Source: Eledone cirrhosa (Eukaryota). From it: DNA of 64,000 bases. The position numbers and the translations under genes are program-made. The notes beneath the pieces are model-generated. The model was not told the origin of the DNA. It worked only from the letters and a program-made list of their open reading frames with translations, and made no database searches. This document shows, one piece after another, positions 9,037 through 62,038 of the stretch. The stretch is from positions 84,010,001 through 84,074,000 of the forward strand of contig OZ024745.1 of the NCBI GenBank assembly GCA_964016885.1. The letters run 5' to 3'. The first letter of the stretch is position 1. Each line of letters begins with the position of its first letter.

Positions 9037-9236
9037 NNNNNNNNNNNNNNNNNNNNNNNNNNNNNNNNNNNNNNNNNNNNNNNNNNNNNNNNNNNNNNNN
9101 NNNNNNNNNNNNNNNNNNNNNNNNNNNNNNNNNNNNNNNNNNNNNNNNNNNNNNNNNNNNNNNNNNNNNNNNNNNNNNNNNNNNNNNNNNNNNNNNNNNN
9201 NNNNNNNNNNNNNNNNNNNNNNNNNNNNNNNNNNNN
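9037..9236. other. Assembly gap (200 N)
   Basis: Run of N. Confidence 1.
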
Positions 9237-40443: not shown

Positions 40444-41020
40444 TGTACATACATACATGTAATTGCCTAGATGATGTCTAAATTCCAAAGAAAAAGTTGT
40501 TTCTATGGTAGAAATCGTATCGTTCTACAACATACATACGTGACTGTGTATGAGAGTGTGTGTTTCAGAGTGTGTGAAGACACAGGGCTTAGCGGTTAGG
40601 GTGCTTGCTCACGGTGGTATACACCTTCTTTCACTTTTTTTCCGGCTCACAGAGCTGGAAGAAATGAGTTGAAACTAATTCAAGGGGGTCAACCTTGCTA
40701 GACTTTTTTGTCACGCTGAAACCTCATAAAAATTGCGTGAGGGGTGTACATAAATAGATAGATATATAGATAGATATATAGATAGATTTCTTTATTAGCC
40801 ACAAGGGCGCACAAGAAAAGGGGACAATACAAAGACATGCCGGGGATTTTACATGCAGTCGTGTAAAAAATATAAAAACAAACAATTACAACAATCGAAA
40901 TCCCCAATAGGGGGGAGGCGCCACAAATGGGTTGTTTAATACCCCGTCGATAGAACAACCCTCAACTCCAGGAGCGTGTTGTGCAAGTGCTCCTTTCTTC
41001 CTTTTGCTCTCTTCCTCAAC

Positions 41021-44000
41021 CTACAGGCTTATAAACAGAGAAGGCCCAATCACTCGGGACATTTTCGTTTCATTCACCCACCTATCAGTAAATTTACTGG
41101 GGTGCAGTGCCTCTCTTTCCACTCTGATTCTCCTCCTAAATTGATACTTAAAGAAGGAATCAATTGTTGTCCGGAGAGAAAGGCATCTGTCCTCAGTCCT
41201 CTCAGCCTCGTCCACCATATAACTTCTTTCACCATAGCCACCGTACAGAGGAAAACCGCCTCTCTTTCGTTTTTGAAAGAGGCTGGCGGTTTTTGAAAGA
41301 GGCTGGCGGTTTTTGAAAGAGGCTGGCGGTTTGATCCTTACTATGGACTCGCCAGTCAACTGGATTTGTCCCATACGCGACAGAATTTGTTCTGCATAGT
41401 TCCACAGGTCGGTTACGGTCGGGCAGTGTACAATTGCGTGCAGGACTGTTTCAATGTCCTGCGCACATCTTGGACACGTCCTCTTGGAAGGATCCCTGCC
41501 GGGGCGTCCGTGTCTGTAGATCTTGTCACGAACCGGTAGAGCTGCTCGGTAGCACTTCCAGGAAGTTGTCCATAGGTCCCGGGCGGAAAGTCCTACCAAA
41601 CAGACTGGTGAGCTCATCGTCTTCGACGCCCAGAGTCTCTCCGAGCACGTCGTCGCCCTTGTAACGTACAATCCCTCTATAGAATGTCGAAGTGGAGTCT
41701 CCACTGATTGCTGCTCCCGCTTGCCAGAGGACTGTGAGCGCCTGAGCGCATTAAATGTGCCAGGCGCCCATCGTTTTCGGTCTTTTCTTCACCCAGGACT
41801 GCAGCTCCGTCAGCGAAACGAGCTGTGGGAAAGGCTATCTCACAAACGGTGCCCACACCGGTTGGGTGTCGGTGAGGAATACCTGGAGATGCCGCAGCCT
41901 CATCGCATGTTTGCGCATCATCAACCACGGCATTCCCAGCCCTCCGTTGGAAGGGTGCTGACGGCAGACGGATCTCCTCACCAGCGGAGCCTGCTTCTTC
42001 CACAGAAACTGGAAGAGCATGCGTTCCATCTTGGGGAGGTGTTCACGGGGACAAGGCACGACAGTCAAGCGGTAGTAGAGGACGGACGCTATGAAAGTGT
42101 TCGCCACCTCCGCTCGACCTTTCAAGGACAGTTTGCACTCTGCCCACTTCTGGGTGAGTACAAACACCTTGGCCGTGATTTCGTTCCAGTTTTTCTCCAT
42201 CTGGAGGTCTCGACCGAACCAGACCCCGAGCAATTTCACCGGTCTGTCCGTCCAGCGTCCAACGACGCTGTCGGACGTCATCGGTTTGCCTCTCCACGTA
42301 CCAAGTTGCAAACCAACAGACTTGTCCGGGTTTAGTTTTGCTCCCGCCAGCGTTTCGTATTCTTTCAGTAAGTTGACGATCACCCCGATTTCGGAGGTGC
42401 TCGACACCATTACCGTCACGTCGTCGGCATAAGCCGACACCGCTTTGCGCAGTCCCGGTTCTAGAGGGATGACCTGCAACAGCCCCAATTTCCGCAGTAG
42501 TGGCTCTAGAGTCATACAGAATGGAGGAGAGAGGGCACCCCTGTCGAGTGGAACGCGTGATTGCGAACGGCTCCGATAGGTAGCTATTCACCTTGACCCT
42601 CGAGCAGATGCTGGTGTGCATCACTTCGATCCATCCTGTGAACACGGGACCGAAACCGGCCGCCTTGAGAACCGCTTCCCAGTATCGATGGTCGACCCTA
42701 TCGAATGCCTTAGACTGATCCAAGTTGATCAGAGCCCCACCGAAGCCGGGTTTACTACCCACCCTCTCTATGATGTATCGCATGAGGTGGAGTTTGTCGT
42801 GTATGGACCTGGTCGGGATTGCACACGTTTGCACTTTCCCTACCAGGTTCTCGACGACAAGCGCCAACGTCGTCGCTAGCACCTTGGCCAAAATCTTTAA
42901 CTCTGTGTTGAGCAGAGTTATGGGCCTGAAGTTGTTAATTTCGTGCCCCTTGTTCTTGTCTTTCCTGGTCAGCGTTACTACGCCCTTGCCTGCAGAACTG
43001 GGAATTCTCCCGTTCTGCTGCCAATTGCAGTAGACGGTTCGAGGACGCCAGAGAACTAGTCCGGCATGCCTATGTAAAATTCGTAGGGTAGACCATCTAG
43101 ACCGGGTGACTTGCGTTTCCCGCAGCGGCCCAGAGCGTCCCGTATCTCAGTGTTCGTGATCGGTCTTTCGCATAACTCGGCGCCCGTGTTCGAGAGATGC
43201 GGCAGGCCGTCGAGGTATGAACTAAAGTCCATTGCCCCGTTCGGCTCACCGTCGTTTTGCTCAAACAGTCGCGCAAATCGCCGCTGAAAGGCCGCGCACT
43301 TTTGCTTGGGGTCAAGTAGCACGCGTCCGTTTTGGTCGTTCAAAGACCGAATCGTGGACTTGTTGCCACTTTTTGCCTCCGCCACTCGGGCCCAGCTGAC
43401 AGCTTTCGCTCCTTCGTTTCCTAGAGCACGTGTTTTGCTTCTGACCACGCAGCCTTCGTGTTTCGCATCGAAGAACTGGTCCAGTGCCGTTCTCGACGCT
43501 AACACTCTAGCCGCGTTGCCACTTCTAAGTGCCTCCTCTACCTTGGCTACTAGTTCTCTTTCTATTCTGTTTTTCTCTAAGGCTAACTCTCTGCTATACC
43601 CTATCGATTCTATTCTAATTGCTTTCTTGAGAGATTACCACCATCTATTGTTGACGATAGCTCCCGTTAACTAGCGGATAAGTAGACTAGCTTGACTAGT
43701 CTACTTATCCGTTCACTGTAAGCTTTACGTGCCGGCAACGACACGTTCAGCCTCCAGTATCCAGCACCCTGTCTATGTATTCTATCACGGTTGACTAAGC
43801 AGACGACTAACTTGTGATCTGAATAGGCAACCATGTGCATTCGTGGACAGCTTAACATCTCCTTGTCCCTTTCTCTAATGAAGAACCTATCTAAATATGA
43901 TCTAGATGTCCCACTGCGGTTTGCCCACGTCCACTGTGGTGCAGTCGGGAAATCCAGTCGATACCTATCGGCCAGTTGGTATTGGCCGATTAAAGTTTTG

Positions 44001-44500
44001 AGGCTGTTGCACCCCGCTCTACTGGGACATGCTCCCACATAGTCCCATCGTGCATCTAGGATACCATTCCAGTCCCCCACTAAAATTAAGGAGCGAGACG
44101 TTCCCAGAAAATACTCTAGACGCTTAAAGAAGTCTGGCCGTGATTGCGATTGCCCGGTCGGGGCATAAATGGCCACCAGTCTGAAGGCTCCACCTCCGAT
44201 ACTGTTCACGTCTAGGACTACCAGTCTACCCTCCGGGTCCAAGTGTACTTGCTGTACTCCGACGTCCAGGTTCTTGCGAAACATGACAGCCACTACACCT
44301 CCACCTCCTGGCTGACAGAGAGATGCGTAGATCTCAAAGTTGTCGAAGATGGGGGTTAGTTGCTGCCTGTTGTGGATCGTGGACTCGGTGATGGCTATCA
44401 CATCCATACTGTGTGACCTAAAGTCGTTTAAAAGTTGGCCCTGTTTCCAGGGCATCCCTAGGCCACGCACATTCACGGTTCCAACTCGTAAACTAGCCAT
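41021..44500 (-). pseudogene. Copy D ORF2: APE endonuclease - RT - zinc finger, disrupted
   Basis: TVNVRGL, LVGDWN, SYLDRF, SDHK, KSPGLDG, LDQSKAFDRV, QGCPLS, AYADD, CPRC..ETVLH..HC. Confidence 0.92.
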
Positions 44501-44541
44501 GTTGGTGAAGAAAAGTTGGAGAAAAAGGACGAAAGGTGCAC

Positions 44542-46319
44542 TTACCTTTTTGTTTCCTGGAGATCGGGTTGTTCAATCTCCATTTGGGTGCTGGATGGGG
44601 TGTTGTGGGGTGGGGAAACATTTTAACAGGACGTGGTTGATGGGTTTGTGGCAGGGGTTGCCCACGTCCTGTGAAAATTTATTTTTTAGGTCTTTATAGG
44701 TTTCCATAGAAACCCTTATAAGTTTAAGGTGTGGAGACGATTCTGCCTTGACGAAAGTTTTGCCCTCCGTCTCCACCTTGGGGTTTTGGGAGATGACCTC
44801 CATCAAATTCTTGTTGCTTGTGTTGATGTATGCGTATTGTTGCTTGTGTTTTTGTTGTGTTGTTTTAGTTTGTTGTTCGTCCGGGAGTTTTTTTTTATGG
44901 TGGGTGCTTGTGTTGAGGTGGTGTTGGTGCTGGTTTTGCTGATAGGGGGATGTTTGACTGTGGTGTTTTTTGTGTTGTTGTTTGTGTCTGTGGTTGTGTG
45001 TTGGTGTTGGTGATTGGAGTTTTGTGGGTTTTGTGGTGTCTCTTTTTTTGTTTTTTAGATTTCCGCGGTTCTCCCTCTTCTTCACTTAAAGAAGGAGAAG
45101 CAGCTTCATCCGTCGATGAATAATCATCGTCAGGTGTGTCGGGTAAGGGTATGTTGTGTGGTGGTGGTGTTTCGGTATGTGTGTTTGTGGTAGTGTTTGA
45201 TGGAGTGGGATGGAGTGGGGCTGTGTTCTTCAGTGGTGTTGTCTCTGTTTTTTCTGTTGTTGTTGGTTGAGTGTCTGTTTGTTTTGTTGTGGTTGCTCGT
45301 TTCGTCTGTCGTTGTACTTGTGGTGGTGGTGGTTGTTTTGATGTTGGTGTTTTTTATGATGTTGTTGTGTGTTTGTGAACAAGAGGCTTTTAGGTGAGCT
45401 GTGCTACCACAGCGAAAGCAATGAAATTTTCATCCTTCTACCGAAATGTTTATTTTGTTGTTATTATCAATAACGACTCTTTCGGGTATTTTGGAGACTC
45501 TCTCCGGTTTCATTTGCAACAGAATCTCCAAATCTGTGCCCGCCCACCTTTGTCGAATAGATTTTCTTATTGAAAGTATCATGTCAGTTTCTGGCTCTAC
45601 GAAGCCAGCCAAGATCCACCAGATGTTAATGTTTGGAGGTATGTTTTTTATTTTTATTTTGTGTGTCCTTTTCCCCATGTATGTAGGGAAAAAGGTGTAT
45701 GCTTTTGACACCATTGGTGTCACAGAGTTTTTTGGGGCGAGTGCCTCGCTTTTAAACAGTACGGAAACACTTCCGTACTGTTTTCCTCGCTGGAGAAAAT
45801 CGACATTTGCTAGAATTTCCTTGAAAGTAACTTCTATATCTGCTTGATTAACAAATGTCGGCTTTCTTGTCGAATTTGACACAGTCCTAAAAGTGACTGA
45901 TCTGCGGATTGTGTCTTCCTTTATTTCAAGGAGTGAGTTAATTCTAAACCCACCTCTTTCTTTGAAAGTTACAAATGTTCTCCCTTGCTGGAGCATATCT
46001 CTTGCGTTGGAGATATCAAGATTTATAAAATCTTGTTTTTTGTTCACCGTTTCAGCGAAAGACATTTTCTTTTTTTGTGTGGTGTTGCTGTTGATGTTGT
46101 TGTTATCGTTGTTGGAAATCTCAGTTCCTTGTCGAGCTGAAACTTTATGTGTAGATGTATCTGTAGAGTTGTTGATGTCTTTTTCATTTGTATGTATGTT
46201 AATGGGTTTAATTCCTGTGTGTTGTTATTTTTCTCCGCTTCGACGGTAGACATTTTAAAATTTTCAAGTGTTAATATAGTTTTTTCTTTGTTGACACTTG
46301 TATCTATGGCGATGTCCAT
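44542..46319 (-). pseudogene. Copy D ORF1 (gag-like), frameshifted
   Basis: Homologous to ORF 54197-56113 (FRTVSNSTRKP, YTFFPTYMGKRT); knuckle CFRCGSTAHLKASC near 45378-45420. Confidence 0.85.
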
Positions 46320-46527
46320 AGTAGCAGAAGCAGATATAACGTTAATATCTGCCTCTTTCTCTCTCTCTTTTCTCTATTAACGTTCTCCAGCGTTCTTGTG
46401 TTGCTCAAGTTATTTAGTTTGTAAAATCTGATATTTTAAAACAAATTTTTAAAATAAAATTTTAGCCCCTACAGGGGCGAAAAATGGGATTACCACCCAG
46501 CTGACAATTCAGCTTGGGGGTTAATCT

Positions 46528-49500
46528 AAACAATTGAAATCCCCAATAGGGGGGGGGAGAGGTGTTACACAGGGGTTGTACACACCCCGAAAAAGTGTAC
46601 AGCCCTCATCTCCAGGAGCACCAAGAGTGAGTAATCCCTTCCTCTCTTCCTCTTTTTCCTCAACCTACAGGCTGATATAGAGAGAAGGCCCAACCACTCG
46701 GGCCATCTTTGCCACATTCACCCACCTTTTATAAAATTTGCTGGGGTACAGCACCTCTCTCTCCATCCTGATTCTTCTTCCAAAATGATATTTGAAAAAA
46801 CGAATCAGTTGCTCGCCGGAGAGAAAGGTGTCTGACCTCAGCCCTTTTAACCTCGTCCACCATATAACCAATTTCACCATAGCCATAACACATAGGAACA
46901 CCGCCTCTCCCTCGTGTTTGAGGGAGGGTGGCGGTTTGATCATGACAATGGCCTCGGTGGTCAACTGGATTGGTCCCACCCGCGACAATAGTCGTTCTAC
47001 ATAGCCCCACCGGTCGGTAACGCCCGGGCAGTGTCCAAATGCATGTGTGACGGTTTCCTCGTCGTGCACGCATCTCGGACAGATCTTTTTCGAAGGGTCC
47101 CTACCCGGGCGCCCGTGTCTGTAGAGCTTGTCTCGAACTGGTAGAGCTCCTCGGTAGCACTGCCAGGCCAGGGACATTTGGAAGTTGTCCATTGGCCCCG
47201 GGCGGAAGGTCCTACCGAACACACTGGCCAGTTCGTCCTCCTCTACGCCTAGAATTTCTCCGAGAGTGTCGTCGCACTTGCTGCGGACCAACCCTCTATA
47301 GAATGTCGAAGTGGAGTCTCTACTGATCGCCGGGTCCGTTTGCCAGAGGACTGTGAACGCCTGGGCACATTCGATGTGCCAGTCGCCCATTTTCCTCGGT
47401 CTTTGCTTGACCCAGGACTGCAGCTCGGTCAGCGAGACGAGTCGTGGGAAGGCTCGCCTCACGAACGGGGCCCACACCGGTTGTCTGGTGAGGAATACGT
47501 GGAGGTGCCGCAGCCTGAGCGCGTGTTTGCGCATCGTCAGCCACGGCATCCCCAGCCCTCAGTTTGAAGGGTGTTGGCAGCAGATGGATCTTCTCACCAA
47601 AGGAGCCCGTTTCTTCCAAAGGAAATATAAGAGCACGCGCTCCATTTTCGTGAGCGTTTTGGCTGGACAAGGCACAACGGTCAAGCGGTAGTAGATGACG
47701 GACGCTATAAAAGTGTTCGCCACCTCCGCTCGACCTTTCAAGGATAGTTTGCACTCGACCCACTTCTGGGTGAGCGCAAACACCTTGGCCGTCACCTCGT
47801 TCCCGTTCTTCTCCACCTGGAGGTAAGGGCCAAACCAGACCCCGAGCATCTTTACCGGTCCTTCCGTCCAGCGTCCGACGACGTCATCGGAAGGCATCGG
47901 TTTGCCTCTCCACGATCCGAGTTGCAAACCGACGGATTTGTCCCGGTTCAGCTTCGCTCCTGTGAAACTTTCGTATTCCTCCAGTAAGGTGCCGATCGCT
48001 CCGATTTGCGAGGTGCTCGACACCATTACTGTCATGTCATCGGCGTAGGCCAACGCCGCTTTTCGCAGTCCCGGTTCCAAAGGGATGCCCTGCAATAGCT
48101 CCAACTTCCGCAGTAGTGGCTCGAGAGTCAGTACGTACAAAAGGGAGGAGAGAGGGCATCCCTGTCGAATGGATCGCGTGATAGGAAACAGCTCCGAGAG
48201 GTAGCCGTTCACCTTCACCCTTGAGCAGATGTTGCTGTTGTGCATTGCAGCAATCCAGCCCCTGAACACGGGACCGAAGCCTGCCTCCTCGAGCACTGCA
48301 TCCAGGTAACGATGGTCGACCCTATCGAAAGCCTTAGACTGATCCAAGTTGATCAGGACCCCACCAAAGCCGGGTTTACACCCTACCCTCTCTATGATGT
48401 ATCGCAGGAGGTGGAGGTTGTCGTGTATGGACCTGGTCGGAATTGCGCATGTCTGCGCTTCTCCCACCAGGTTATCGACGACAAGCGCCAGCCTCTTTGC
48501 CAACACCTTGGCCAAAATCTGTAACTCTGTGTTTAGCAGAGTTATGTGCCGGAAGTTGCCTATATCATCACCCTTGTTCTCGTCCTTCCTGACTAACGTG
48601 ATTACGCCCTTGGCCACAGAACTGGGAATTCTCCCGTTCTGCCGCCAGTTGCAGTAGACCGCTTCCAGGAGACCGGAGAACAAGTCTGGCATTGCTACGT
48701 AAAATTTGTAGGGTAGACCGTCGAGACCTGGAGATTTGCGTTTGCCGCATTGCCTCAGCGCGTCCCCTATCTCAGCGGCTGGAATCGGCCTTTCGCAGAA
48801 CTTCGCCTCGCTGTCCGAGAGTCGCGGTTATCCGTCGAGGTATGAACCGAAATCCATAGCCCCTCCCGGCGAGCCGCCCTGCCCGAACAGTTGAGCAAAG
48901 TGCCGCTGAAAGGTCGCGCACATTTGCTTCGGCTCACGCATCACGCCTCCGTCCTGGTCCCTCAAAGACCGAATCGTAGACCTGTTGCCACCTTTCGCCT
49001 CCGTCACTCGGGTCCAGCTAACAGCTTCGGCCCCCTCGTCTCCCAGAGCACGTATTTTGCTTCTGACAACGCAGCCCTCATGCCTTGCGTCGAAGAACTG
49101 GTCCAAGGGCGCCCCAGCCGCTAGCACGCTGGCTACGCTGCCACTCCCAAGTGCCCCCCCCCCCAACTTATCTACCAGCTCCTTTTCAGTCCTATTTCTA
49201 TCTAACACTAATTCTTTACTAAAACCTATCGAATCCAATCCAACTGCCCTCCCGAGAGAGTACCACCATCTGTTGTTGACAATGGCCCACGTCAAGTGTT
49301 GCTTAACTAAAGTGCTAATCCGTTTACTGTAGACCTTGCATGTCGGTAATGACAAGTTCAGCTACCAGTAGCTGGGTGCCTGTATATGGGTTTTGTGAAG
49401 GTTGACTAAGCAGGTCACTAATTTGTGATCTGAATAGGCAACCATGAACATTTGTGGACAGCTTAACATGTCCCTATCCTTCTTTCTAACTAGAACCCTA

Positions 49501-50506
49501 TCTAGGTACGATTTAGATGTTCCGCTATATTTAGTCCACGTCCACAGTGGCACAGTCGGAAAATCTAGTCGATATCTATCGGCCAGGTCAAATCGGGCGA
49601 TTAACTGTTTGAGGCTGTTACACCCTCCTCTATCGGGACATGCTCCCACGTAGTCCCAACGTTCATCTAGGATTCCATTCCAGTCCCCCACTAACAGCAG
49701 GGAACGGGACGTTCCCAGAAAGTCTCCAGACGTTTGAAGAAGTCTGGCCGCGGTGTCCCGGATGGGGCATATGCGGCCACCAGCCTGAAGGCTCCACCTT
49801 CACTACCGTCAACCTCTAGGACCACCAGTCGACAATCCGGGTCCAGATGTACCGTCTGTGTTACGAGGTCCAGGTGTTTCCGCAGCAAAACAGCAACCCC
49901 ACACCCACCTCCCGGCTGTCAGAGAGATGCGTAGATCTCAAAGTCGTCGAAGATGGGGGCCAGTTGTAGCTCGCTGTGGATCCTGGACTCGCAAATTGCT
50001 ACTACATCCATACTGTGCGACCTGAGGTCGTTTAAGAGTTTGCCCTGTTTCCAGGGCATACCCAGGCCGCGTACATTCACACATCCAACTTTTATATTGG
50101 CCATGTTAGTGATGAAAAGTTAAAAGAAGAGGAAAAGAAATCACTCACCTCTTCGTCTCCTGGGGACCAGGCTGCACAATTTCCATGGGGGTGTTGGAGG
50201 GGTTGTTTGGTAGGGTAGGGGGAGATGTTTAGTGGGGAGGGGGTGTCAGGTGGGGTGGGGTGCCTGGGGTGGGGGTGGGGAAACATTTCAAAAGGACGCG
50301 GTTATAGGGTTTGACGCAGGGGTTACTTACGTCGTTAGGAAATTTTTCTTTCAACTATTTATGTGTGTCCATGGAGATCCTAATCATTTTAAGATTAGGA
50401 TTCTCCGCAGAGTGTATAAAAGTTTTCCCTTCTGTGGAGACCGAAGGGTTTTTACATATGGTGCCTGTTAAAGTTTTATTGTTAGTATTTATGTAGGTGT
50501 AGGTGT
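46528..50506 (-). mobile_element. Tx1-clade copy C: 5'-truncated inside ORF1, last ~100 bp missing
   Basis: Begins at YTYTYINTNNK of ORF1; ORF2 remnant 46665-50104 closely similar to copy B. Confidence 0.92.
46665..50104 (-). pseudogene. Copy C ORF2 (APE-RT-zf), disrupted
   Basis: Consecutive ORF fragments with the same motifs (AYADDMTV); ends GPSLYISL*. Confidence 0.92.
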
Positions 50507-50756
50507 ATAGATAGATATATTTCTTTATTAGCCACAGGGGCACAAAAGAAGGGGACAAATACAAAGGGGGAAGTTTACATACAATAAAAACGTGTAAAAT
50601 GTTATCACAGATGGAATTCAAAAGTTAGTCGACCTTCCCCAACAGAGGGAGACAGTTCATATGGGCAACACATACCCCCGAAAAAAATGTGCAACCCTCA
50701 TCTCCAGGAGTACGAAGAGCTTGTACTCCTTTCCTCTCCTCCTCCTTTTCCTCAAT

Positions 50757-53700
50757 CTACAGGCTGATATAGAGAGAAGGCCCATTCACTCGGGCCATTC
50801 TCGCCACTTTCACCCACCTTTCATAAAACTTGCTGGGGTACAGCACCTCTCTCTCCATCCTGATTCTTCTTCCAAAGTGGTATTTGAAAAAAAGAATCAG
50901 TTGTTGGCCGGAGAGAAAGGTGTCTGACCTCAGCCCTTTCAACCTTGTCCACCATACAACCTCTTTCGCCATAGCTATCACACAAAGGAAAACCGCATCT
51001 CCTTCGTTTTTGAAGGAGGGTGGCGGTTTGATCATGACAATGGACTCGGTGGTCAACTGGATTGGTCCCACCCGCGACAATAGTCGTTCTACATATCCCC
51101 ACAGGTCAGTGACGCCCGGGCAGTGTATGAATGCGTGCGCGACGGTTTCTTCGTCTCGCACGCACCTCGGACAGATCTTTTTGCAGGGTCCCTGCCCGGG
51201 CGCCCATGTCTGTAGAGCTTGTCTTGAACTGGTAGAGCTCCTCGGTAGCACTGCCAGGCCAGGGACTTTTGGAAGTTGTCCATCGGTCCCGGGCGGAAGG
51301 TCCTACCGAACAGACTGGCCAGTTCATCTTCCTCCACGCCTAGAGTTTCACCGAGCGCGTCGTCGCACTTGCTGCGGACCAACCCTCTATAGAATGACGA
51401 AGTGGAGTCTCCACTGATCGCCGGGTCCGCCTGCCAGAGGGCTGTGAGCGCCTGAGCACATTCGATGTGCCAGTCGCCCATTTTCCTCGGTCTCTGCTTG
51501 ACCCAGGACTGCAGCTCGGTCAGTGAGACGAGTCGTGGGAAGGCTCGCCTCACGAACGGGGCCCACACCGGTTGTCCGGTGAGGAATACGTAGAGATGCC
51601 GCAGCCTGAGCGCGTGTTTGCGCATCGTCAACCACGGCATCCCCAGCCCTCCGTTAGAAGGGTGTTGGCAGCAGATGGATCTTCTTACCAAAGGAGCCCG
51701 CCTCTTCCAAAGGAATCGGAAGAGGGCGCGCTCCATTTTGGCGAGCGTTTTGGCTGGACAAGGCACGACGGTCAAGCGGTAGTAGATGGCGGACGCTATA
51801 AAAGGATAGTTTGCACTCGGCCCACTTCTGGGTGAGTGCAAACACCTTGGCCGTCACTTCGTTCCAGTTCTTCTCCACCTGGAGGTCCGACCAAACCAGA
51901 CCCCGAGCAGCTTTACCGGTCCTTCCGTCCAGCGTCCGACGACGCCATCGGAAGGCATCGGTCTGCCTCTCCACGATCCGAGTTGCAAACCGATGGACTT
52001 GTCCCGGTTCAGCTTCGCTCCTGTGAGACTTTCGTATTCCTTTAGTAAGGTGCCGACTTTTTCGATTTGCGAGGCGCTCGACACCATTACTGTCACGTCG
52101 TCGGCGTAGGCCGACGCCGCTTTCCGCAGTCCCGGTTCCAGAGGGATGCCCTGCAATAGCTCCAGCTTCCGCAGTAGTGGCTCGAGAGTCAGTACGTACA
52201 GAAGGGAGGAGAGAGGGCATCCCTGTCGAATGGATCGCGTAATATGGAACGGCTCCGAGAGGTAACCGTTCACCTTGACCCTTGAGCAGATGTTGCTGTT
52301 GTGCATTGCAGCAATCCAGCCCCTGAACACGGGTCCGAAGCCTGCCGCCTCGAGCACCGCATCCAGGTAACGATGGTCAACCCTATCGAAAGCCTTAGAC
52401 TGATCCAAGTTGATCAGGGCCCCACCGAAGCCGGGTTTACACCCTACCCTCTCTATGATGTATCGCATGAGGTGGAGGTTGTCGTGTATGGACCTGGTCG
52501 GGATCGCGCATGTCTGCGCTTCTCCCACCAGGTTCTCGACGACAAGCGCCAGCCTCTTTGCCAACACCTTGGCCAAAATCTGTAACTCTGTGTTTAGCAG
52601 AGTTATGGGCCGGAAGTTGCCTATGTCATCCCCCTTATTCTCGTCCTTCCTGATTAGTGTGACCACGCCCCCGGTTACAGAACTGGGAATTCTCCCGTTC
52701 TGTTGCCAGTTGCAGTAGACCGCTTCCAGGAGACCGGAGAATAAGTCCGGCATTGCTACGTAAAATTCGTAGGGTAGACCGTCGAGACCTGGAGATTTGC
52801 GTTTGCCGCATTGGCTCAGCGCGTCCCCTATCTCAGTGGCTGAAATCGGCTTTTCGCAGAACTTCGCCTCGCTGTCCGAGAGTCGCGGTAGGCCGTCGAG
52901 GTATGGACCGAAATCCATAGCCTCTCCCGGAGCGCCGCTCCCCCCGAAGAGCCGAGCAAAGTGCCGCTGAAAAGCCGCACACATCTGCTTCGGCTCACGT
53001 ATCACGCGTCCGTTTTGGTCCTTCAAAGACCGAATCGTGGACTTGTTGCCACTTTTTGCCTCCGTCACTCGGGCCCAACTAACAGCTTTGGCTCCCTCGT
53101 TTCCCAGAGCACGTATTTTGCTTCTGACAACGCAGCCCTCGTGCTTTGCGTCGAAGAACTGGTCCAAGGCCGTTCTCGTTGCTAGCACGCTGGCTACGTT
53201 GCCACTTCTAATAGCCTCTTCTACTTTATCTACCAGTTCCTTCTCGGTTCTATTTCTATCTAACGCTAATTCTTTACTAAAAACTATCGAGTCTAATCTA
53301 ACTGCCCTCTTGAGAGAGTACCACCATCTGTTGTTGACAATGGCCCCTGTCAAGTGCTGTTTAACTAAAGTGCTAATCCGTCTACTGTAGGCTTTGCTTG
53401 TCGGTAACGACAAGTTCAGCTTCCAGTAGCCGGGTCCTTGTCTATGGGTTCTATCAAGGTTGGCCATGCAGGTCACTAGTTTGTGATCTGAATAGGCAAC
53501 CATGAACATTTGTGGACAGCTTAACATGTCCCTATCCTTATTTCTAACTAGAACCCTATCTAGGTACGATCTAGATGTTCCGCTACGATTACTCCACGTC
53601 CACAGTGGCGCAGTCGGAAAATCTAGTCGATATCTATCGGCCAGGTCAAATCGGTCGATTAACTGTTTGAGGCTGTTACACCCCCCTTTATCGGGACATG

Positions 53701-54163
53701 CTCCCACATAGTCCCAACGTGCATCTAGGATTCCATTCCAGTCCCCCACTAAAAGCAAGGAGCGGGACGTTCCCAGAAAAGTCTCTAGACGTTTGAAGAA
53801 GTCTGGCCGCGGTGTCCCGGATGGGGCATATGCGGCCACCAGCCTGAACGCTCCACCTTCACTACCGTCAACGTCTAGGACCACCAGTCGACCCTCCGGG
53901 TCCAGATGTACCGTCTGTGTTACGAGGCCCAGGTGTTTCCGCAGCAAAACGGCAACTCTGCCCCCACCCCCCGGTTGACAGAGAGATGCGTAGATCTCAA
54001 AGTCATCGAAGATGGGGGCCAGCTGTCGCTCGCCGTGGATCCTGGACTCGCAAATGGCTACCACATCCAAACTGTGCGACCTGAGGTCGTTTAAGAGTTT
54101 ACCCTGTTTCCAGGGCATCCCCAGGCCGCGTACGTTCACACATCCAACTCTTATATTGGCCAT
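50757..54163 (-). pseudogene. Copy B ORF2 (APE-RT-zf): open for ~755 codons, then frameshifts and a ~29-bp deletion at ~51803
   Basis: 769-aa ORF with APE and RT motifs (YADD); continuation in 51089-51841 and 50757-51251. Confidence 0.95.
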
Positions 54164-54196
54164 GTTGGTGCTGAAAAGTTAAAAGAGGAAAAGAGA

Positions 54197-56113
54197 TCAC
54201 TCACCCTTCGCCTCCTGGGGACCAGGCCGCACGATTTCCATGGGGGTGTTGGAGGGGTTGTCTGGATGGGTGGTGGTTTCCGGCGGGGTGGGGACGCAGA
54301 TGTTTGGTGGGGTGGGGTCTGGTGGGATGGGGGTGTCTGGGGTGGGGAGACATTTGAGAAGGACGCGGTTGAGTTGTTTCACGCAGGAATTCCCCACATC
54401 CTTCTCAAATGTTTCTTTTAGGGACCTATAAGTTTGTATAGGGACCCTAATCAGTTTTAGGTTCATTTTTTTGCTATTTTTTATAGAGTGGGCGAAAGTT
54501 TTCCCTTCGGTGAAAACCGAAGGGTCGTTCGTAATGGTCTCCATTAGTGTTTTGTTTTCAGTGTTTATGTAAGTGTAAGTGTAATTTTCTTGTGTTGTGT
54601 TTGTTTTTGTCTGTAGTTCTTGTGTGTGCTTTCGTTTTGTTGTAGGTATTTTGTTTTCAGGAGGTGGGGGTTTTGTTTGTGATATTTTTGTTGTTTGTGT
54701 TGGTGGTTGTATGTTTGTGGTAGTGTTTGCTGGTATTTTGCTTTTGTGATGTCTTTTCTTTCTTTTCGAGCGATGGGGTTCTCCCTCGTCTTCACTGGGT
54801 GATGGCGAGATAGCCTCATCTGTTGTATCGGCTGTGTGATTGGGGAGGGGTATGTCTTGGGGAGCTGTTGTGTCTGTATGTGATTTTGCAGTGGTTTTAG
54901 GTGGAGTGAGGTTGGGTGGGACTGTGTTTGTTGTGGTTATTTTTGTGTGTTGGTGTTGTTGTTGTAGTGGTGGTGTTGGTGGTTGTGTTGTTTTGATGGG
55001 TGTTGGCAGAAGAGCCTTTTTTTGGTTCATTAGTTTAGGACAGGAAGCCCTCAGGTGACCCCTGCTAAAGCAATGGTAACATGAAGGCCGCCTACCCTCA
55101 ACCGAAAGGTTTATGTAGGTAAGTCCGTCCAGGAGTACACGCTGTGGGATCATAGCTATTCGCTCTGGGCTCATTTGCACCAGAACTTCAATGCTAGTCC
55201 CATTGAATACATCTCTGTGGGACTTGCCTACTGATAGTATTCTGTCTTCATCAAAATTGATGAAGCCGCACAGTATCCACCATATGTTCACCTTTGGTGT
55301 GACACTTGTGATTCTGATCTTTTGTGTCCTTTTTCCCATGTATGTAGGGAAAAAGGTGTACAGGTTGGATACAATTGGCGACACAGAGTAATTTTGGGCC
55401 GTCAATTGATCCTTCATGAGTACCGAAATACTCCCAAAAAGTTTGCTTCTTTGAATGAATGCAATATCATTCATTGAATCTTTGAAAACCAGTTCAATAT
55501 CTTTCTGTGACAATTGGACTGGTTTTCGGGTAGAATTGGAAACTGTCCTAAAAACTATCGTTTTGAGAGCAGTTTCCTTGCGAATTTCTACCGGAGAATT
55601 GATGCTGAAAGCACCATTTTTTTCGAAGGTGAGATATCTCTTAGCGTCCTTTAAAAGGTGTTCAGCATTTGTTATGTCGAGATATATCAATTGTTCTTTC
55701 TTTTGAACTTTCTCCGCAAAGGAGATTTTTGGTTTCTTTGTGGAATCCGTATTGGTGATGTTGTCATTATTGTTGTTATTCTTGTTGTTATTCTTGTTGT
55801 CACCGATGTTGGTATCATCCGTATTTTCCTTGGTGTTGTTGTTGTCTTTGATGCTGGTGTTATTGGCGTTGTCTTTATTTTTTTCTTTGTTGTTGTTATC
55901 ATTGTTGCTTTTATCATCATTATTGGTTTTGCTGTTATTTTTGTTGTCATTGAGCTGTTTGGTGTCATTTGTGTTGTTTGGATGTGAATTCGTTTTTTTA
56001 TTTTCATTTTGTCTTTCCATCTCTATAGTATCTAGTGAAGAAGACGTTGTTGACTGCGAGCTTTGTAGTCTTACCGCCTCTCCACCACCATTATCGTTGG
56101 ACGCAGCGTTCAT
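54197..56113 (-). CDS. Copy B ORF1 protein (638 aa): Asn-rich N-terminus, conserved core, one CCHC knuckle, Thr/Pro linker, conserved C-terminal domain
   Basis: Uninterrupted ORF; CYHCFSRGHLRASC; homologous to ORF1 of copies A, C and D. Confidence 0.9.
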   Translation of the reverse strand: MNAASNDNGGGEAVRLQSSQSTTSSSLDTIEMERQNENKKTNSHPNNTNDTKQLNDNKNNSKTNNDDKSNNDNNNKEKNKDNANNTSIKDNNNTKENTDDTNIGDNKNNNKNNNNNDNITNTDSTKKPKISFAEKVQKKEQLIYLDITNAEHLLKDAKRYLTFEKNGAFSINSPVEIRKETALKTIVFRTVSNSTRKPVQLSQKDIELVFKDSMNDIAFIQRSKLFGSISVLMKDQLTAQNYSVSPIVSNLYTFFPTYMGKRTQKIRITSVTPKVNIWWILCGFINFDEDRILSVGKSHRDVFNGTSIEVLVQMSPERIAMIPQRVLLDGLTYINLSVEGRRPSCYHCFSRGHLRASCPKLMNQKKALLPTPIKTTQPPTPPLQQQHQHTKITTTNTVPPNLTPPKTTAKSHTDTTAPQDIPLPNHTADTTDEAISPSPSEDEGEPHRSKRKKRHHKSKIPANTTTNIQPPTQTTKISQTKPPPPENKIPTTKRKHTQELQTKTNTTQENYTYTYINTENKTLMETITNDPSVFTEGKTFAHSIKNSKKMNLKLIRVPIQTYRSLKETFEKDVGNSCVKQLNRVLLKCLPTPDTPIPPDPTPPNICVPTPPETTTHPDNPSNTPMEIVRPGPQEAKGE

Positions 56114-56574
56114 AACGTAATCAAAATTTTACAATATTTTTTCCAAGATTCGATGGAGAAAAATTTTTTAAATGGATATTCCGCCCCTGAAGGGGCGAAA
56201 ATGAGTTGACCCACCACCTGAAGGTCCAGACGGGTGGTCAAGTTACACAATGATATAAAATTGAACTAAAAACTCACGTTTTTTCCTTACATAAATTAAC
56301 GGAAACTTCTCCGCGAAGTGACACACGACTGATAGAGAGATAAATTTCTATTTATTTGCCACGAGGGCACAAAAGAAGGGGACATTTACACAGTGGGGGA
56401 GTTTACATAAATCGAGTAAAGAAAAAAGGAATAACAATAATAATATAACAATAAAAAGTCCTCAAAAGGGAGGGGGCGTGTTGGGGATTGCACATACCCC
56501 CGAAAAGTGTGCAACTCTTTTCGCGGGGGAAGCCCAGAGAGGAGGCGCTCCCCCTTTCCTCTTCACTTCTTCAC

Positions 56575-59500
56575 CTACAGAACAATGTAGAGAGAAGGCC
56601 CATTTACACGGGCCATTCTCGCTTCTTTCACCCACCTTTCATAAAACTGTCTGGGACCAAGCACTTCTCTCTCCATCCTGATTCTTCTTCCGAAGTGGTA
56701 TCGGAAGAAGTAAACCAGGTGATGGCCGGAGAGAAAGTCACCCGACCTCAGACCTTTCAGGCGCGTCCACCACACAACCTCTTTCATCATGGCTATTACG
56801 CACAGAAAGACCGCCTCTGCTTCATTTCTGAAGGGAGGAGGCGGCTTGATGTTCACCACAGACTCGGCGGTTAATCGAATCGGCGCCACACGCAACAGCA
56901 GTCGTTCGACGTAGCCCCACAGATCGGCAACGCCCGGGCAGTGTACCAGTGCATGCGCAACGGTTTCCTCGTCGCGCACGCATCTGGGACAGATCTTTTT
57001 CGCGGGATCCCTGCCCGGGCGCCCGTGTCTGTAGAGCTTTTCTCGAACGGGCAGAGCCCCCCGGTAACACTGCCAGGCTAGGGACCTCTGGAAGTTGTCC
57101 ATGGGTCCCGGGCCGAAAGTTCTACCGAACAGGCTGGCCAGTTCGTCCTCCTCCATGCCTAGCGACTCTCCAAGGGTGTCGTCGCCCCTGCTAGCCACCA
57201 ACCCTCTATAGAATGTCGAGGTGGATTCTCCACTGACAGTCGGGTCCGCTTGCCAGATAGCCGTGAGCGCCTGGGCACACTCAGTGTGCCAGTTGCCCAG
57301 TTTTCTCGGTCTTTGCTTCACCCAGGATTGCAGTTCGGTGAGCGAGACGAGCTGTGGGAAGGCTCGCCTCACAAACGGGGCCCACACCGGCTGACCGTTG
57401 AGGAATACCTGTAGATGCCGTAGCCTCAATGCGTGCCTACGCATCAACAACCACGGAATACCCAGCCCTCCTTTCGAAGGGTGCTGGCAGCAGATGGATC
57501 TCCTCACCATGGGAGGCCGCTTCTTCCAGAGGAACTGGAAGAGCATGCGTTCCATGATGGTGAGCTTTTCCTTGGGGCAAGGCACGACGGTCAGGCGGTA
57601 GTAGATGACGGACGCTATGTAAGCGTTCGTCACCTCCGCCCGACCTTTCAGTGATAGTTTGCACTTGGCCCACTTCTGGGTCAGCGCAAACACCCTGCTC
57701 GTCACCTCGCCCCAATTCTTCTCCACCTGGAGGTCCGGTCCGAACCAGACCCCGAGCAGCTTCACCGGGCCCTCCGTCCACCGCCCGACGACACCGTCTA
57801 ACGGCATCGGTTTGCCCCTCCACGTTCCGAGTTGCAAACCGACTGACTTGTCCTGGTTCAGCTTAGCCCCCGTCAGCCTTTCGTATTCCTCCAGTAGGGT
57901 GGCGATCGCCCCGATTTCCGAGGCGTCCGCCACCATTACTGTTACGTCGTCGGCATAGGCCGAGACCGCTTTGTGCAATCCCGGTTCCAGGGGTATGCCC
58001 CGCAGCAACTCCAACTTCCGCAGCAGTGGCTCGAGAGTCAATACGTACAGAAGGGAGGAGAGGGGGCACCCCTGTCTGATGGATCGGGTGATTTGAAACG
58101 GCTCCGAGAGGTAGCCGTTTACTTTAATCCTAGAGTAGATGTTGCCACTGTGCATGGCAGAAATCCAGCCCCTGAAAACGGGTCCGAAGCCCGCCGCCGC
58201 TAGCACCGCATCCAGGTAACCATGGTCGACCCTATCGAACGCCTTAGATTGATCCAAGTTGATCAGGGCCCCACCAAAGCCGGGTTCGTAGCCAACCCTC
58301 TCTATGATGTATCGCATGAGGTGGAGGTTGTCGTGAATGGACCTGGACGGGATAGCGCATGTCTGCGCGTCTCCCACCAAACCACCCACCACAAGCGCCA
58401 ACCTCTTCGCCAACACCTTGGCAAAATCTGTAACTCTGCATTCAGCAGAGTTATGGGCCTAAAGTTACTTAAGTCGTCCCCCTTGCTCTCGTCCTTCCTC
58501 ACTAGCGTGACCACGCCCTTGGTCACAGAACAGGGAATTCTCCCGTTCTGTTGCCAGTTGCAATAGACAGCCTCGAGGAGTTCGGAGAACAAGACCGGCA
58601 TAGCTAAATAAAGTTCGTATGGTAGACCATCGAGACCCGGGGATTTGCGTCTGCTGCATTGGCTGAGCGCTTCCCCGATTTCAGTGGTTGTGATTGGCCC
58701 TTCGCAGCACTCCGCTTCGCCGCTCGAAAGACGCGGTAGACCGTCGAGGTATGGACCGAAGTCCACATCCCCGTCCGGCCCCCCGCCACCTCCGAACAGT
58801 CGAGCAAAGTGCCTTTGAAAGGTCTCGCACATTCGCTCAGGTTCAAGGATCACCCGTCCATCCTGGTCTCGCAAAGACCGAATGGTGGATTTAATCCCAC
58901 TCTTGGCTTCTGTCACGCGGGCCCAGCTAACAGCTTTGGTCCCCTCGTTTCCTAAAGCACGTATTTTACTTCGGACAACGCAGCCTTCGTGCTTCGCGTC
59001 AAAGAACTGGCTCAATGCCGTTCTCGTCGCTAACACTCTGGCTACGTCTCCGCTCCTAATCGCCTCTTCTAGTTTATCTGTTAACTCCCTTTTCCTCCTA
59101 TTTCTATTCGCCGCTAGTTCCTTACTGTAACCTATCGAACTTACTCTAATCTCTCTCTTTAGAGATATCCACCACCTACTGTTGACGATCGCTCCCGTCA
59201 ACCGCATCTTAACTAAGCTACTAATCCGGTTTCTGTAATCTTTCTTTGTCGGTAAGGACAAGTTCATCTTCCAGTAACCGGGACCCTGTCTATGCGTTCT
59301 ATCAAGGTTGACCACGCAGGTCACTAATTTGTGATCTGAATAGCCAACCATGATCAGTTCTGGACAACTAAATACGTCCCTATCCTTACTCCTAACCAAA
59401 AACCTATCTAGGTACGATCTAGATTGTCCACTGCGGTTTGCCCAGGTCCAGGTTGGCGCAGTTGGACAATCTAGTCGAAATCTATCGACCAGGTCGAATC

Positions 59501-60014
59501 GATCGAGTAACCCCTTGAGGCTGCTACACCCCCTCTATCGGGACATGCCCCTGCATAGTCCCAACGCGCATCTAGGATTCCATTCCAGTCCCCCACTAAA
59601 AGCAGGGAACGCGACGTTCCTAGAAAAGTCTCCAGACGCTGGAAGAAGTCGGCTCTTTCCGCCCCGAAGGGAGCATAAAGACCGACCAGTCTGAAAGCCC
59701 CGCCTTCACCGCCTCCGACGTCCAGCACCAGTAATCGACCCCCCGGGTCCGAGTGAACAATCTGTACGTCGAGAGTCAGACGTTTATCCAGCAGTACGGC
59801 AACTCCCCCCCCCCCCGCCTCCGGGTTGACAGAGAGATGCGTGCATCTCAAAGTCATCGAAGGCGGGCGCCAGCTGTCTCACGCTGCTGATCCGACTCTC
59901 GCAAACAACCATCACATCTATACTTTGTGACCTGAGGTCACTTAGAAGCTTTGCTTGCTTCCAAGCTGAGCCCAGGCCACGCGCGTTCAAACAGCCAACT
60001 CTCAATTGATCTAT
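56575..60014 (-). pseudogene. Copy A ORF2 (APE-RT-zf); ATA where other copies have ATG, about three frameshifts
   Basis: Fragments 59784-60005, 59471-59857, 58302-59399, 56575-58416 are colinear with copy B ORF2. Confidence 0.92.
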
Positions 60015-61837
60015 TTTGGTGTTGAAAGTGAAGAAAGAAAAGCACTTACCTCTCCGGGTTGCGTAATTTCCATGGCATCAGGTGTGTTGGGTGGAGGGAT
60101 GTTTTGTGGTGGTGTGGGGGTACACGTGTGTGGTGGGGTTGGGGTATTTGGAGTTGTGTCAGGGAGAGGGGCGGTTATGGGGAAATCTTTCAAGAGGACG
60201 CGATTCAACGGTTTTAAACAGGGGGGGCTCATGTCCCGTCTAAATTGTTCTTTTAAGGAACGATAAAGGTCCAGAGGGACCTTTATCATTTTTAAATGGG
60301 TGAAGTTCTCTGTCTGTTGAGATAAAGTTTGGCCCTTCGGTCTGCACCATAGGGTTATTGTTTATTAATTTAACCAGTTTTTTGTTTTCTTTATTTATAT
60401 ATGTGTATTGCAACGTCTTTTTTTGTGATGCTGTCAATGTTTCGGAGAGGGGAGGCGCAGATTTATTTTTGTTTGTTGAGGGTGGGGTGTTTTTGATTGG
60501 AGTTGGTGTTTGTGTGTGGGTTATTTGTGGTGTGCTGGGTGTGTGTTTTCTTGTTTTTCTTTTAACTTGTCTGAAGGCTTCTCCTCCTTCTTCTTCAGAA
60601 GTTGGGGGAAACTCTTCCGCGCTAGGTGGGAGGGACGTGTTGTGTGGTTGTTTTTTTTTTGCGGGAGGGGTAGATTTGTTACTGTTTTTTTTATTATTTG
60701 TTTGGAATGGGTTTTGTGGTGGTGGTGGTGGTAATGTTTGTGTCGTGCTTGTGGTTGGTGATGGTGGTGGTGATGTTTGTGTTGTGGTTGGTGGTGGTGA
60801 TTTTTGTGTCGTGCTTGTGTTTGGTGCTGGTGGTGGTGATGTTTGTGTTGTGTTTGTGGTTGGTGGTGTCTGTATTTTGTTTGCTGTGTATTTTTGGAGG
60901 TGGGTGGTGCTGGTGTACTGTTTGTGGTGGGTGTGGGCAATAGTCCTTTTTGGGGGATACGTTTCGGGCAGTTAGCCTTAACGTGTCCCCTTTCCATGCA
61001 TAAATAGCATGCTGGTCTTCTCCCCTCTACAATTATGTCTATTGGGGTAAGGTCATCCAGCCAGATGCGATCCGGGATTTGTGCTATTCTTTCGGGCCTC
61101 ATTTGGACTAGTATGTCGAGGCCCATTCCCAGGAACGCATCTCCAGTTGCCTTCCCCATTGACAGCATAGTGTCTTCGCCCATATCAATGAAGCCAGCAA
61201 TAGCCCACCAGAAGTCCATTGTGGGCAGCATTGTTTTTACTTTTACTCTCTGTGTTCTTCTACCCATGTAGGAGGGATAGAAGCTATATGTTGTCGACGA
61301 GAGTGGGCTTAGGGAAAGCTTCTCCGCCGTTTCTTTGTCTCTTGTTAGGACCGAAATGCTGCCATAGAGTTGGTCCTTTCGTATGAAGAGAATATTCTTC
61401 ATATAGTCTTTTAGGACTAACTCTATTTCCATTTGGCTGGGCTGTGCTGGCTTTCTTGTCTGGTTCAGTATAGTTCTGTATAGAACTGTGTTTTCTGCTC
61501 TGGCTTTCTTGAATTCTGGGGGGGAGTTAATGGAAAACATTCCGTTCTCCCCCAAAACAATGTGTTTCTTTGCTTCGGCCAGTTTTTCTCTGGCGGCAGT
61601 TAGGTCAATTGGTGTGTATGTAATGGATTGTTTTGTTTTCTGGGCGAAAGTTGCCCTGTTGTTATTTGTATTATTTTCTGTTTGTTTGTTTTCTGTTTGC
61701 TCATTTTCCTTAACATTTGTTTTTTCATTTTCTTTGTTTGTTTCATTGTCTAATTTTGTTGTAATTATTTTTTGTTCTTCAGACTTGGGGGGCGTGGCAG
61801 AGCTAATGGCAGACATGTCTGCCATCTTTTCCGCCAT
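60011..61837 (-). pseudogene. Copy A ORF1, frameshifted in the 3' part
   Basis: VEGRRPACYLCMERGHVKANCP; C-terminal YTYINKENKKL..TEG..LNRVLLK fragments. Confidence 0.88.
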
Positions 61838-62038
61838 GCTGCCAAGAAAGAAATTTTTCGGCAAAAATAGATATTTATTTTACCCCCTAAAAAGGGGGTA
61901 AATGCAAAAATATTTCCCTAAATAACAGGGGTTAGTGTTCCAAATGTGTTGCACTGAAAAATTTATCCGGTACTTACAATAGTAAGGGTAAATCCCGATG
62001 GAATAGCGGAGCCGATGTGAAGCGTGTCTTACTCTATC

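Follow-up and report, generated by a model that had tools for sequence, protein, structure and literature searches.

Introduction

In the accepted view of long interspersed nuclear elements (LINEs), a single unspliced bicistronic RNA serves for both of their proteins, and it is at translation that the first protein, ORF1p, comes to be in excess. HAL1 and HeT-A are non-LTR derivatives (LTR, long terminal repeat) with open reading frame 1 (ORF1) only, TART reportedly has splice sites, and among LTR elements Drosophila copia makes a subgenomic GAG RNA. Such an RNA is also described for Arabidopsis EVD, of the Ty1/copia group, where the 5' splice site (the donor) is the conserved half of the splice site pair (PMC5580714; this source and the others cited here by PMC number were available in partial text). 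Splicing of human L1 gives the SpIREs (PMC5860796) and SpORF2 (PMC2896524), and the microsatellite-targeting non-LTR retrotransposons of the Tx1 clade include Kibi, Koshi and crocodilian Tx1 (PMC4494074), with 'L1-Tx1' families described in Octopus vulgaris (PMC13282606). Here we consider a stretch of 64,000 nucleotides from Eledone cirrhosa (assembly GCA_964016885.1, contig OZ024745.1, positions 84,010,001 to 84,074,000), referred to as the window, which between 40.8 and 62.0 kb carries four head-to-tail non-LTR retrotransposons, A, B, C and D, all on the minus strand and with TATC repeats between them. Each carries a consensus donor at the end of ORF1, and we judge the chances evenly balanced that this donor opens an optional intron comprising ORF2, regulated by a predicted RNA helix (the clamp) and yielding an ORF1-only message. 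A literature search, with most subscription papers, Repbase reports and supplements outside it, found no description of such an arrangement of donor and ORF2 intron in Tx1/L1-type LINEs.

A conserved 5' splice site at the end of ORF1

A preliminary description of the window had placed a donor at the ORF1 end of each of the four elements and an ORF2-stop TAG behind a C/T-rich stretch at 56575 (A), 50757 (B), 46665 (C) and 41021 (D), and both sets of positions are confirmed. With a slash for the exon-intron boundary and all features on the minus strand, the donors read GAG/GTAAGT in A (60044-60052, +1 at 60049; ORF1 phase 0), AGG/GTGAGT in B (54199-54207, +1 at 54204; phase 1), GAG/GTGAGT in C (50143-50151, +1 at 50148) and AAG/GTAAGT in D (44540-44548, +1 at 44545), the last two being in phase 2 and, as had correctly been seen, overlapping the ORF1 stop codon (AG/G TGA and AG/G TAA). 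The motif alone is at chance level, AGGTRAGT occurring 5 times in the window against 4.1 expected, and what exceeds chance is the position of the donor, because it is the consensus of its subfamily and lies at a homologous place across subfamilies. Within subfamilies it is found in 30/30 A loci and 30/30 B loci (the latter selected across the site), and GTAAGT is kept in 28 of 30 D loci.

Further subfamilies were sampled via an ORF2-start motif that excludes the donor and via a distant protein, and from 19 tried 13 representatives were taken, with ORF2s 68-93% identical; those omitted were close relatives, copies lacking the ORF2 end and L313, a locus whose donor is mutated. The wider family alignment that had been proposed as a check on GTRAGT conservation bears the donor out, since G/GTRRGT stands at the homologous place, 25-47 nt upstream of the ORF2 start, in 13/13 representatives. 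Positions -1, +1, +2, +5 and +6 are invariant, +3 and +4 are A or G only and conservation ends at +6, as against 54 invariant sites among the 290 fourfold sites of ORF2 (19%) in the same representatives. The donor occurs in ORF1 phases 0, 1 and 2 as subfamily states, so a stop codon can account for +2 to +4 in the phase-2 families only, and the spacer behind it is 72-88% pyrimidine without sequence conservation. When decayed and duplicate loci are counted too, GTRRGT lies within 120 nt upstream of 224 of 232 ORF2 starts. Scored with a generic matrix, the donor ranks first among the 208-230 GTs that lie downstream in each of 13 out of 14 representatives and second in K, and it outscores every listed upstream GT.

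All of the subfamilies are related, A, B, C and D being four of them and not independent inventions, and ordinary recombination is present in the family. Subfamily I (L312, L307) has an E/F-like 5' part of ORF2 joined to a K-like 3' part and 3' untranslated region (UTR), and is, judged by its sequence, an ordinary recombinant with a breakpoint within ORF2. These points, along with a motif not over-represented in the window, could be taken to mean that the donor is a site without a role, kept by shared descent and chance, and that the chimeric junctions considered below are template switches at a 2-nt microhomology. Such an account seems very improbable, however: five invariant positions set against 19% fourfold invariance give 0.19^5 or about 2e-4 (0.19^3 or about 6e-3 when codon and stop are allowed to account for two of them), the invariance persists next to a spacer varying from 25 to 47 nt in length, and a control AG gave no chimeras. 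We are confident that the donor is a selected U1-type site.

Two other splices were considered and rejected. One would remove ORF1 from a donor in the 5' UTR, and no conserved strong upstream donor was found there across subfamilies, the 5' ends being poorly defined in several copies; weaker GTRAGT motifs do lie in the 5' UTRs of A (61972-61977) and B (56272-56277), some 55-60 nt in. The other is a mini-intron within the spacer that would fuse ORF1 to ORF2, and the AG before the ORF2 start that it needs is present in some subfamilies only and, as the frames read, out of phase in A and B.

Chimeric elements joined at the donor

C/D-type ORF1 ends not followed by G were searched for in the genome, a search that is conditioned on the donor, and 72 of the 120 matches were inspected. 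Point changes account for 47 of these and 4 are unrelated matches, while 3 (L549, L553 and L558) have small deletions at the donor and are set aside as local slips. The remainder are two kinds of chimera, J1 with 14 matches and J2 with 4. The C-like ORF1 end of J1 runs precisely up to the donor and continues into the final 23 nt of an H-type ORF1, and in 5 parental H matches these 23 nt are preceded by CAG. J2 likewise has a C ORF1 end cut precisely at the donor, and it resumes 99 nt ahead of the donor of a J1 element, just behind a CAG; J2 and the copies that are likely its collapsed derivatives match C at 89-92% upstream and H at 90-94% downstream. Among the 25 AGs in the 400 nt before the next donor the J2 acceptor ranks first, that of J1 is the second of 14, and a full-length J1 element (H4) has an ORF2 that is 96% and an ORF1 that is 66% H. 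At the control AG, 10 nt upstream of the donor and without a GT, 17 of 17 matches were point changes and none was a chimera.

These fossil chimeras indicate that the splicing machinery likely uses the donor, and it is probable that the donor is spliced at least at times. We infer that J1 and J2 go back to tandem arrays whose read-through RNA was spliced, one donor being joined to a small exon that the next donor defines, and that the product was then retrotransposed, as it could be because it retained ORF2. The tandem arrangement required by such a donor-to-next-element splice is that of B followed by the truncated C, whose ORF1 end (50149-50507) lies immediately behind the AATAAA (50524-50529) and TATC repeats of B. 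Elsewhere an F-type array of at least 10 elements, spaced by about 5.84 kb, occupies G000:C1:423365266-423418069, and in the window copy C lacks the distal 3' UTR and abuts the 5' part of D directly (46500-46560).

The acceptor side

Recognition of a 3' splice site at the ORF2 end is a less settled matter than the donor. The candidate acceptor of A consists of the final ORF2 codons and the TAG stop (56575-56598) and is the best of 261 AGs downstream of the donor, as computed on a related A copy; in B (50757-50780), C (46665-46688) and D (41021-41044) the stop AG is accompanied by a second AG, in B 7 nt upstream. ORF2 terminates in TAG and then G in most lineages. The preliminary description had called for splice-site scoring, and the outcome was clear for the donor and mixed here, with the stop AG ranked 1-10 among about 260 AGs in the 10 representatives having it intact; no branch point has been established for it. 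After the stop the bases are often GTGAG, GTAAA or GTGAA in many subfamilies, which resembles a weak donor immediately behind the acceptor.

Joining the donor to the stop-region acceptor would end ORF1 within 4 residues in 10/10 TAG subfamilies when the better of the two AGs is taken (phase shuffle 0.038, not tree-corrected). The short ORF1 ends that had been claimed for A, B, C and D thus hold for one of the acceptors, and the alternative acceptor gives tails of 28-35 residues in B, C and D. A protein search for ORF1s with spliced C-termini gave no match.

In the K/I lineage the ORF2 stop is TAA and the stop-AG acceptor is lost; the strongest acceptor of the element, a U-run and CAG, lies instead in the 3' UTR, 160-170 nt downstream of the ORF2 end, in a lineage of 7,780 copies. 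In 11 other representatives AG is scarce in the distal U-rich UTR, where 6 occur against 32 expected and none of the 16 dinucleotides falls lower (GA 27 against 32). From sequence K/I looks like acceptor turnover. Hence the claim that ORF2 of every copy is bracketed by splice signals stands at its donor end, which is conserved in 13/13 representatives beyond what descent, the stop codon or the ORF1 frame would provide, and fails at the other end in K/I. It had also been supposed that the acceptor is the weaker half because it is coding; it does code for a hydrophobic C-terminus, and K/I has a strong acceptor that is non-coding.

A predicted helix over the donor

Folding predicts a duplex of 25-44 bp between donor plus spacer and the first 35-50 nt after the ORF2 stop, with the donor covered. 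The 5' strand is the pyrimidine-rich spacer, at 60015-60043 in A (computed on a related A copy), 54164-54198 in B, 50105-50142 in C and 44501-44539 in D, and the 3' strand is the purine-rich start of the 3' UTR, at 56533-56574 in A, 50713-50756 in B, 46623-46664 in C (with a donor-complementary stretch at 46623-46634) and 40979-41020 in D, which also holds a donor-complementary stretch. Cognate duplexes beat all 200 shuffles in 7 of 13 representatives, and in 8 of 13 no other window of the element does better, with a mean energy of -37 kcal/mol against -31 for non-cognate pairs. A six-base anti-donor in C, D, G, I and K tracks the +3/+4 state of the donor (shuffle 0.016, not tree-corrected). 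With the predicted duplex ORF2 would form a closed loop, and its start and stop codons would come to lie next to each other.

That last property opens a reading in which the functional unit is the RNA clamp itself, bringing the ORF2 start and stop together for translation coupling or ribonucleoprotein assembly, and the donor look-alike is a by-product of an Arg codon, the stop codon and the pairing of the helix. In its favour +2 to +4 of the phase-2 families take exactly the three stop codons, the predicted helix mostly pairs G+1, G+5 and T+6, and the state of +3/+4 covaries with that of the partner by the shuffle just given. ORF2 translation is also unusual in subfamily A, a young subfamily with intact ORF2 frames (loci L047-L076 and L283-L287), where the start (60012-60014 in the window) is ATA for ATG in 39/39 matches and is overlapped by the ORF1 stop, an arrangement that implies either initiation at a non-AUG codon or reinitiation. 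We nevertheless consider this reading improbable. The motif is identical in phase 0 and phase 1 families, where it forms no stop, the Arg codon invariably has G as its third base, and the chimeric junctions are donor-exact and CAG-exact. The partners of the invariant donor bases vary, T+2 having 4 partner states and being Watson-Crick paired in 3 of 13, and so the helix does not explain the donor.

A working model for an optional ORF2 intron

In the fuller form of the favoured reading, to which we give slightly less than an even chance, the whole of ORF2 is a regulated intron: the clamp, with its anti-donor strand, would toggle between full-length and ORF1-only RNA, acceptors would turn over while the donor stays, and the donor would shuffle ORF1s across tandem arrays. 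In the favoured reading itself U1 would bind the donor as it is transcribed, and the acceptor and the second clamp strand would emerge 3.4 kb later, at which point splicing and clamp formation would compete. Where the helix of donor and spacer with the 3' UTR start forms it would mask the donor and leave the remaining RNA full-length. As acceptor the element would use the stop AG of ORF2 or the one lying 7 nt upstream or, in K/I, the U-rich CAG of the 3' UTR. The ORF1-only message would serve to make extra ORF1p, and as spliced RNA yields no ORF2p it would not be copied back, given cis preference. In read-through RNA of tandem arrays the donor may sometimes join the CAG just before the donor of the next element, in which case ORF2 would be kept and chimeric lineages founded.

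Were this correct, the copia solution would have re-arisen in a non-LTR element with a U1 site at the ORF1/ORF2 boundary and a helix there to mask it, the host would have a handle for silencing the element via splicing, and ORF1 swaps between LINE families would have a mechanism in tandem-array splicing followed by cis retrotransposition.

Weighing the proposed ORF2 intron

A number of results weigh against an ORF2 intron, amongst them the search for ORF2-less copies. Probes spanning the expected junction found none for B/C/D against 1,734 unspliced copies, none for E/F/I against 1,067, and none for A, C/H/M or G, and of the 105 variant sites at the K/I acceptor 65 were inspected, again with none; coverage was incomplete for J, H2, H3 and other subfamilies. 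By contrast spliced copies make up around 2% of full-length human L1 events (PMC5860796). K-type deletions ending at the distal acceptor (L336 and L377) are not splices, as the deleted part has no initial GT. The suggestion that an ORF2-less form is retrotransposed as a non-autonomous element is therefore dropped, although splicing itself is untouched by this result given the cis preference established for L1 (PMC5860796). Assembled contigs from four runs of unrecorded kind, compared with copy B, gave no donor-to-acceptor joint among 15 of 184 joints listed, and contigs of run X4, likewise of unrecorded kind, cross the copy B donor unspliced; neither result carries weight either way.

On the donor side, J1 and J2 are only two events, both involve C-type donors and share the 2-nt AG microhomology, and their joins lead into the next element instead of to the ORF2-stop acceptor. 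Donor chimeras were not found for A or G (0 matches each), B (12/12 inspected), H (14/14) or E/F/I (13/13), nor among 30 of 77 K matches inspected or among 30 of 32 C/D matches with altered +2. Amongst distant L1/Tx1-like metagenome loci G/GTRAGT occurs within 90 nt in 1 of the 37 with an ORF2 start (80 fetched; GTAGGT not searched), and as far as compared the donor trait appears lineage-specific; those loci are just 23-32% identical over the ORF2 starts used and are not informative on the sister clade at about 40% identity (P0002-P0036).

On the acceptor side, the tract codes for a conserved hydrophobic C-terminus common to distant relatives, an AG some 450 nt into ORF2 scores equally well as the stop acceptor, and fourfold sites near the ORF2 end have no extra conservation, which is the outcome there of the synonymous-site comparison asked for earlier. 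The acceptor gain in K/I is a single event and would add 50 (I) or 20 (K) residues to ORF1. As for the clamp, the cognate strand is the best partner in 5 of 13 representatives only and the duplex is weak in G, I and J. The predicted pairing of spacer and 3' flank, which the preliminary description lacked, can furthermore explain the G and purine-rich run after the stop without splicing.

Several of these points would fit a donor that is a U1-binding element without a regular acceptor. On such an account U1 would likely keep the A-rich ORF1 from being polyadenylated prematurely, or would aid elongation and export, the clamp and the AG-poor UTR prevent ORF2 excision, and J1 and J2 are rare accidents. 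The absence of ORF2-less copies from the searches and a weak, coding acceptor would be expected, and 13 of 18 representatives have an AWTAAA upstream of the donor, at a distance of 190-355 nt. There is precedent in that U1 blocks premature termination of full-length EVD RNA (PMC5580714), and that most human L1 RNA escapes its conserved splice sites (PMC5860796). Yet B, D, M, H4 and H5 lack the upstream AWTAAA, which elsewhere sits in A-rich coding sequence and was counted without a chance model; the short stops after the join, in 10/10 TAG families, find no place in a U1-only function; and the most abundant lineage, with 7,780 3' ends, has a textbook acceptor below a strong donor, a costly combination were splicing purely harmful. 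On balance we regard a U1 role without regular splicing as possible but doubtful.

The elements and their host family

C is 5'-truncated and ORF2 is broken in all four window copies. ORF1 of A (60011-61837) is frameshifted in the window copy and reads past the donor to a TAG overlapping the ORF2 start; its ORF2 (56575-60014), with APE endonuclease, reverse transcriptase (RT) and zf-RVT parts, is also frameshifted here and begins at ATA in place of ATG, as it does in all A-type copies seen. ORF1 of B (54197-56113) is intact, with 638 residues, a CX2CX4HX4C knuckle and low-complexity ends, and its ORF2 (50757-54163) is broken here and intact, at 1144 codons, in sister copies. The ORF2s of C (46665-50104) and D (41021-44500) are degenerate. 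Pfam assigns Exo_endo_phos, RVT_1 and, slightly below cut-off, zf-RVT to ORF2, and a Pfam search with ORF1 gave no match; Atlas look-alikes of ORF1 (0.90-0.92) have zf-CCHC, RRM or ZCCHC3-type domains, which is a lead only. A PDB search with the endonuclease gave no match. We provisionally take the elements to be of Tx1 type from their anatomy and microsatellite targeting, the nearest proteins found carrying no name.

TATC repeats flank B-type copies at both ends and TAT-type repeats lie behind K/I copies. Judged by 3' ends there are two target groups, TAT-type repeats for E/F/I/K and TATC repeats for A, B, C, D, H and M. At the 5' end of B (56320-56330) an initiator-like TCAGT stands straight after the TATC repeats, which suggests an internal Pol II promoter. 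The host genome of 3.0 Gb has 6,784 matches to the degenerate ORF2-start motif with many frames intact, and the family is large and young. The window also contains a 200-base N gap at 9037-9236.

Comparison with known systems

HAL1 and HeT-A resemble the scheme put forward here in that ORF1 is expressed without ORF2, and differ from it in being genomic ORF2-less elements, of which none was found here.

With the Tx1-clade and 'L1-Tx1' elements these retrotransposons share two ORFs, an APE, RT and cysteine-rich end, a zinc-knuckle ORF1, insertion at microsatellites and tandem arrays. Unlike the descriptions of those elements, where the available text mentions no conserved donor, clamp or ORF1-only RNA (PMC4494074, PMC13282606), they carry the boundary features set out above; in the portion to hand PMC13282606 has 'splic' 0 times, and PMC4494074 speaks of splicing only for small nuclear RNAs. 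The targets, (TATC)n and (TAT)n-type repeats, also differ from those given there for the named Tx1-clade elements.

Human L1 is alike in having splice sites within a LINE, and in that spliced RNA retaining ORF2 is copied back, as seems to have happened for J1 and J2 (PMC5860796, PMC2896524). The human donors, in these partial accounts, lie in the 5' UTR, remove the promoter or ORF1 and are harmful, with one being retained through overlap with a RUNX3 site. The donor in Eledone is at the ORF1 end and would remove ORF2, and its fossil junctions join two elements and have founded multi-copy lineages. Copies lacking exactly the ORF2 intron were not found in the junction searches, and genomic junctions exactly at the donor and behind an AG, the mark of SpIREs, were found in J1 and J2, with splicing as their probable cause.

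A functional counterpart may be EVD, which in the available text likewise has a U1-type donor near the end of the structural gene, a donor more conserved than its acceptor, and an excess of structural protein as the proposed purpose, with U1 additionally guarding the full-length RNA (PMC5580714). EVD is an LTR element with a single polyprotein frame and a short intron coupled to premature termination, whereas the elements here are LINEs with two separate ORFs, a candidate intron that runs for 3.4-3.5 kb up to the normal 3' UTR, and a predicted long-range clamp. Their non-LTR anatomy, and a second exon that would be normal 3' UTR, place them outside Ty1/copia, and by analogy the LINE donor may work like the plant copia donor without being a member of that class.

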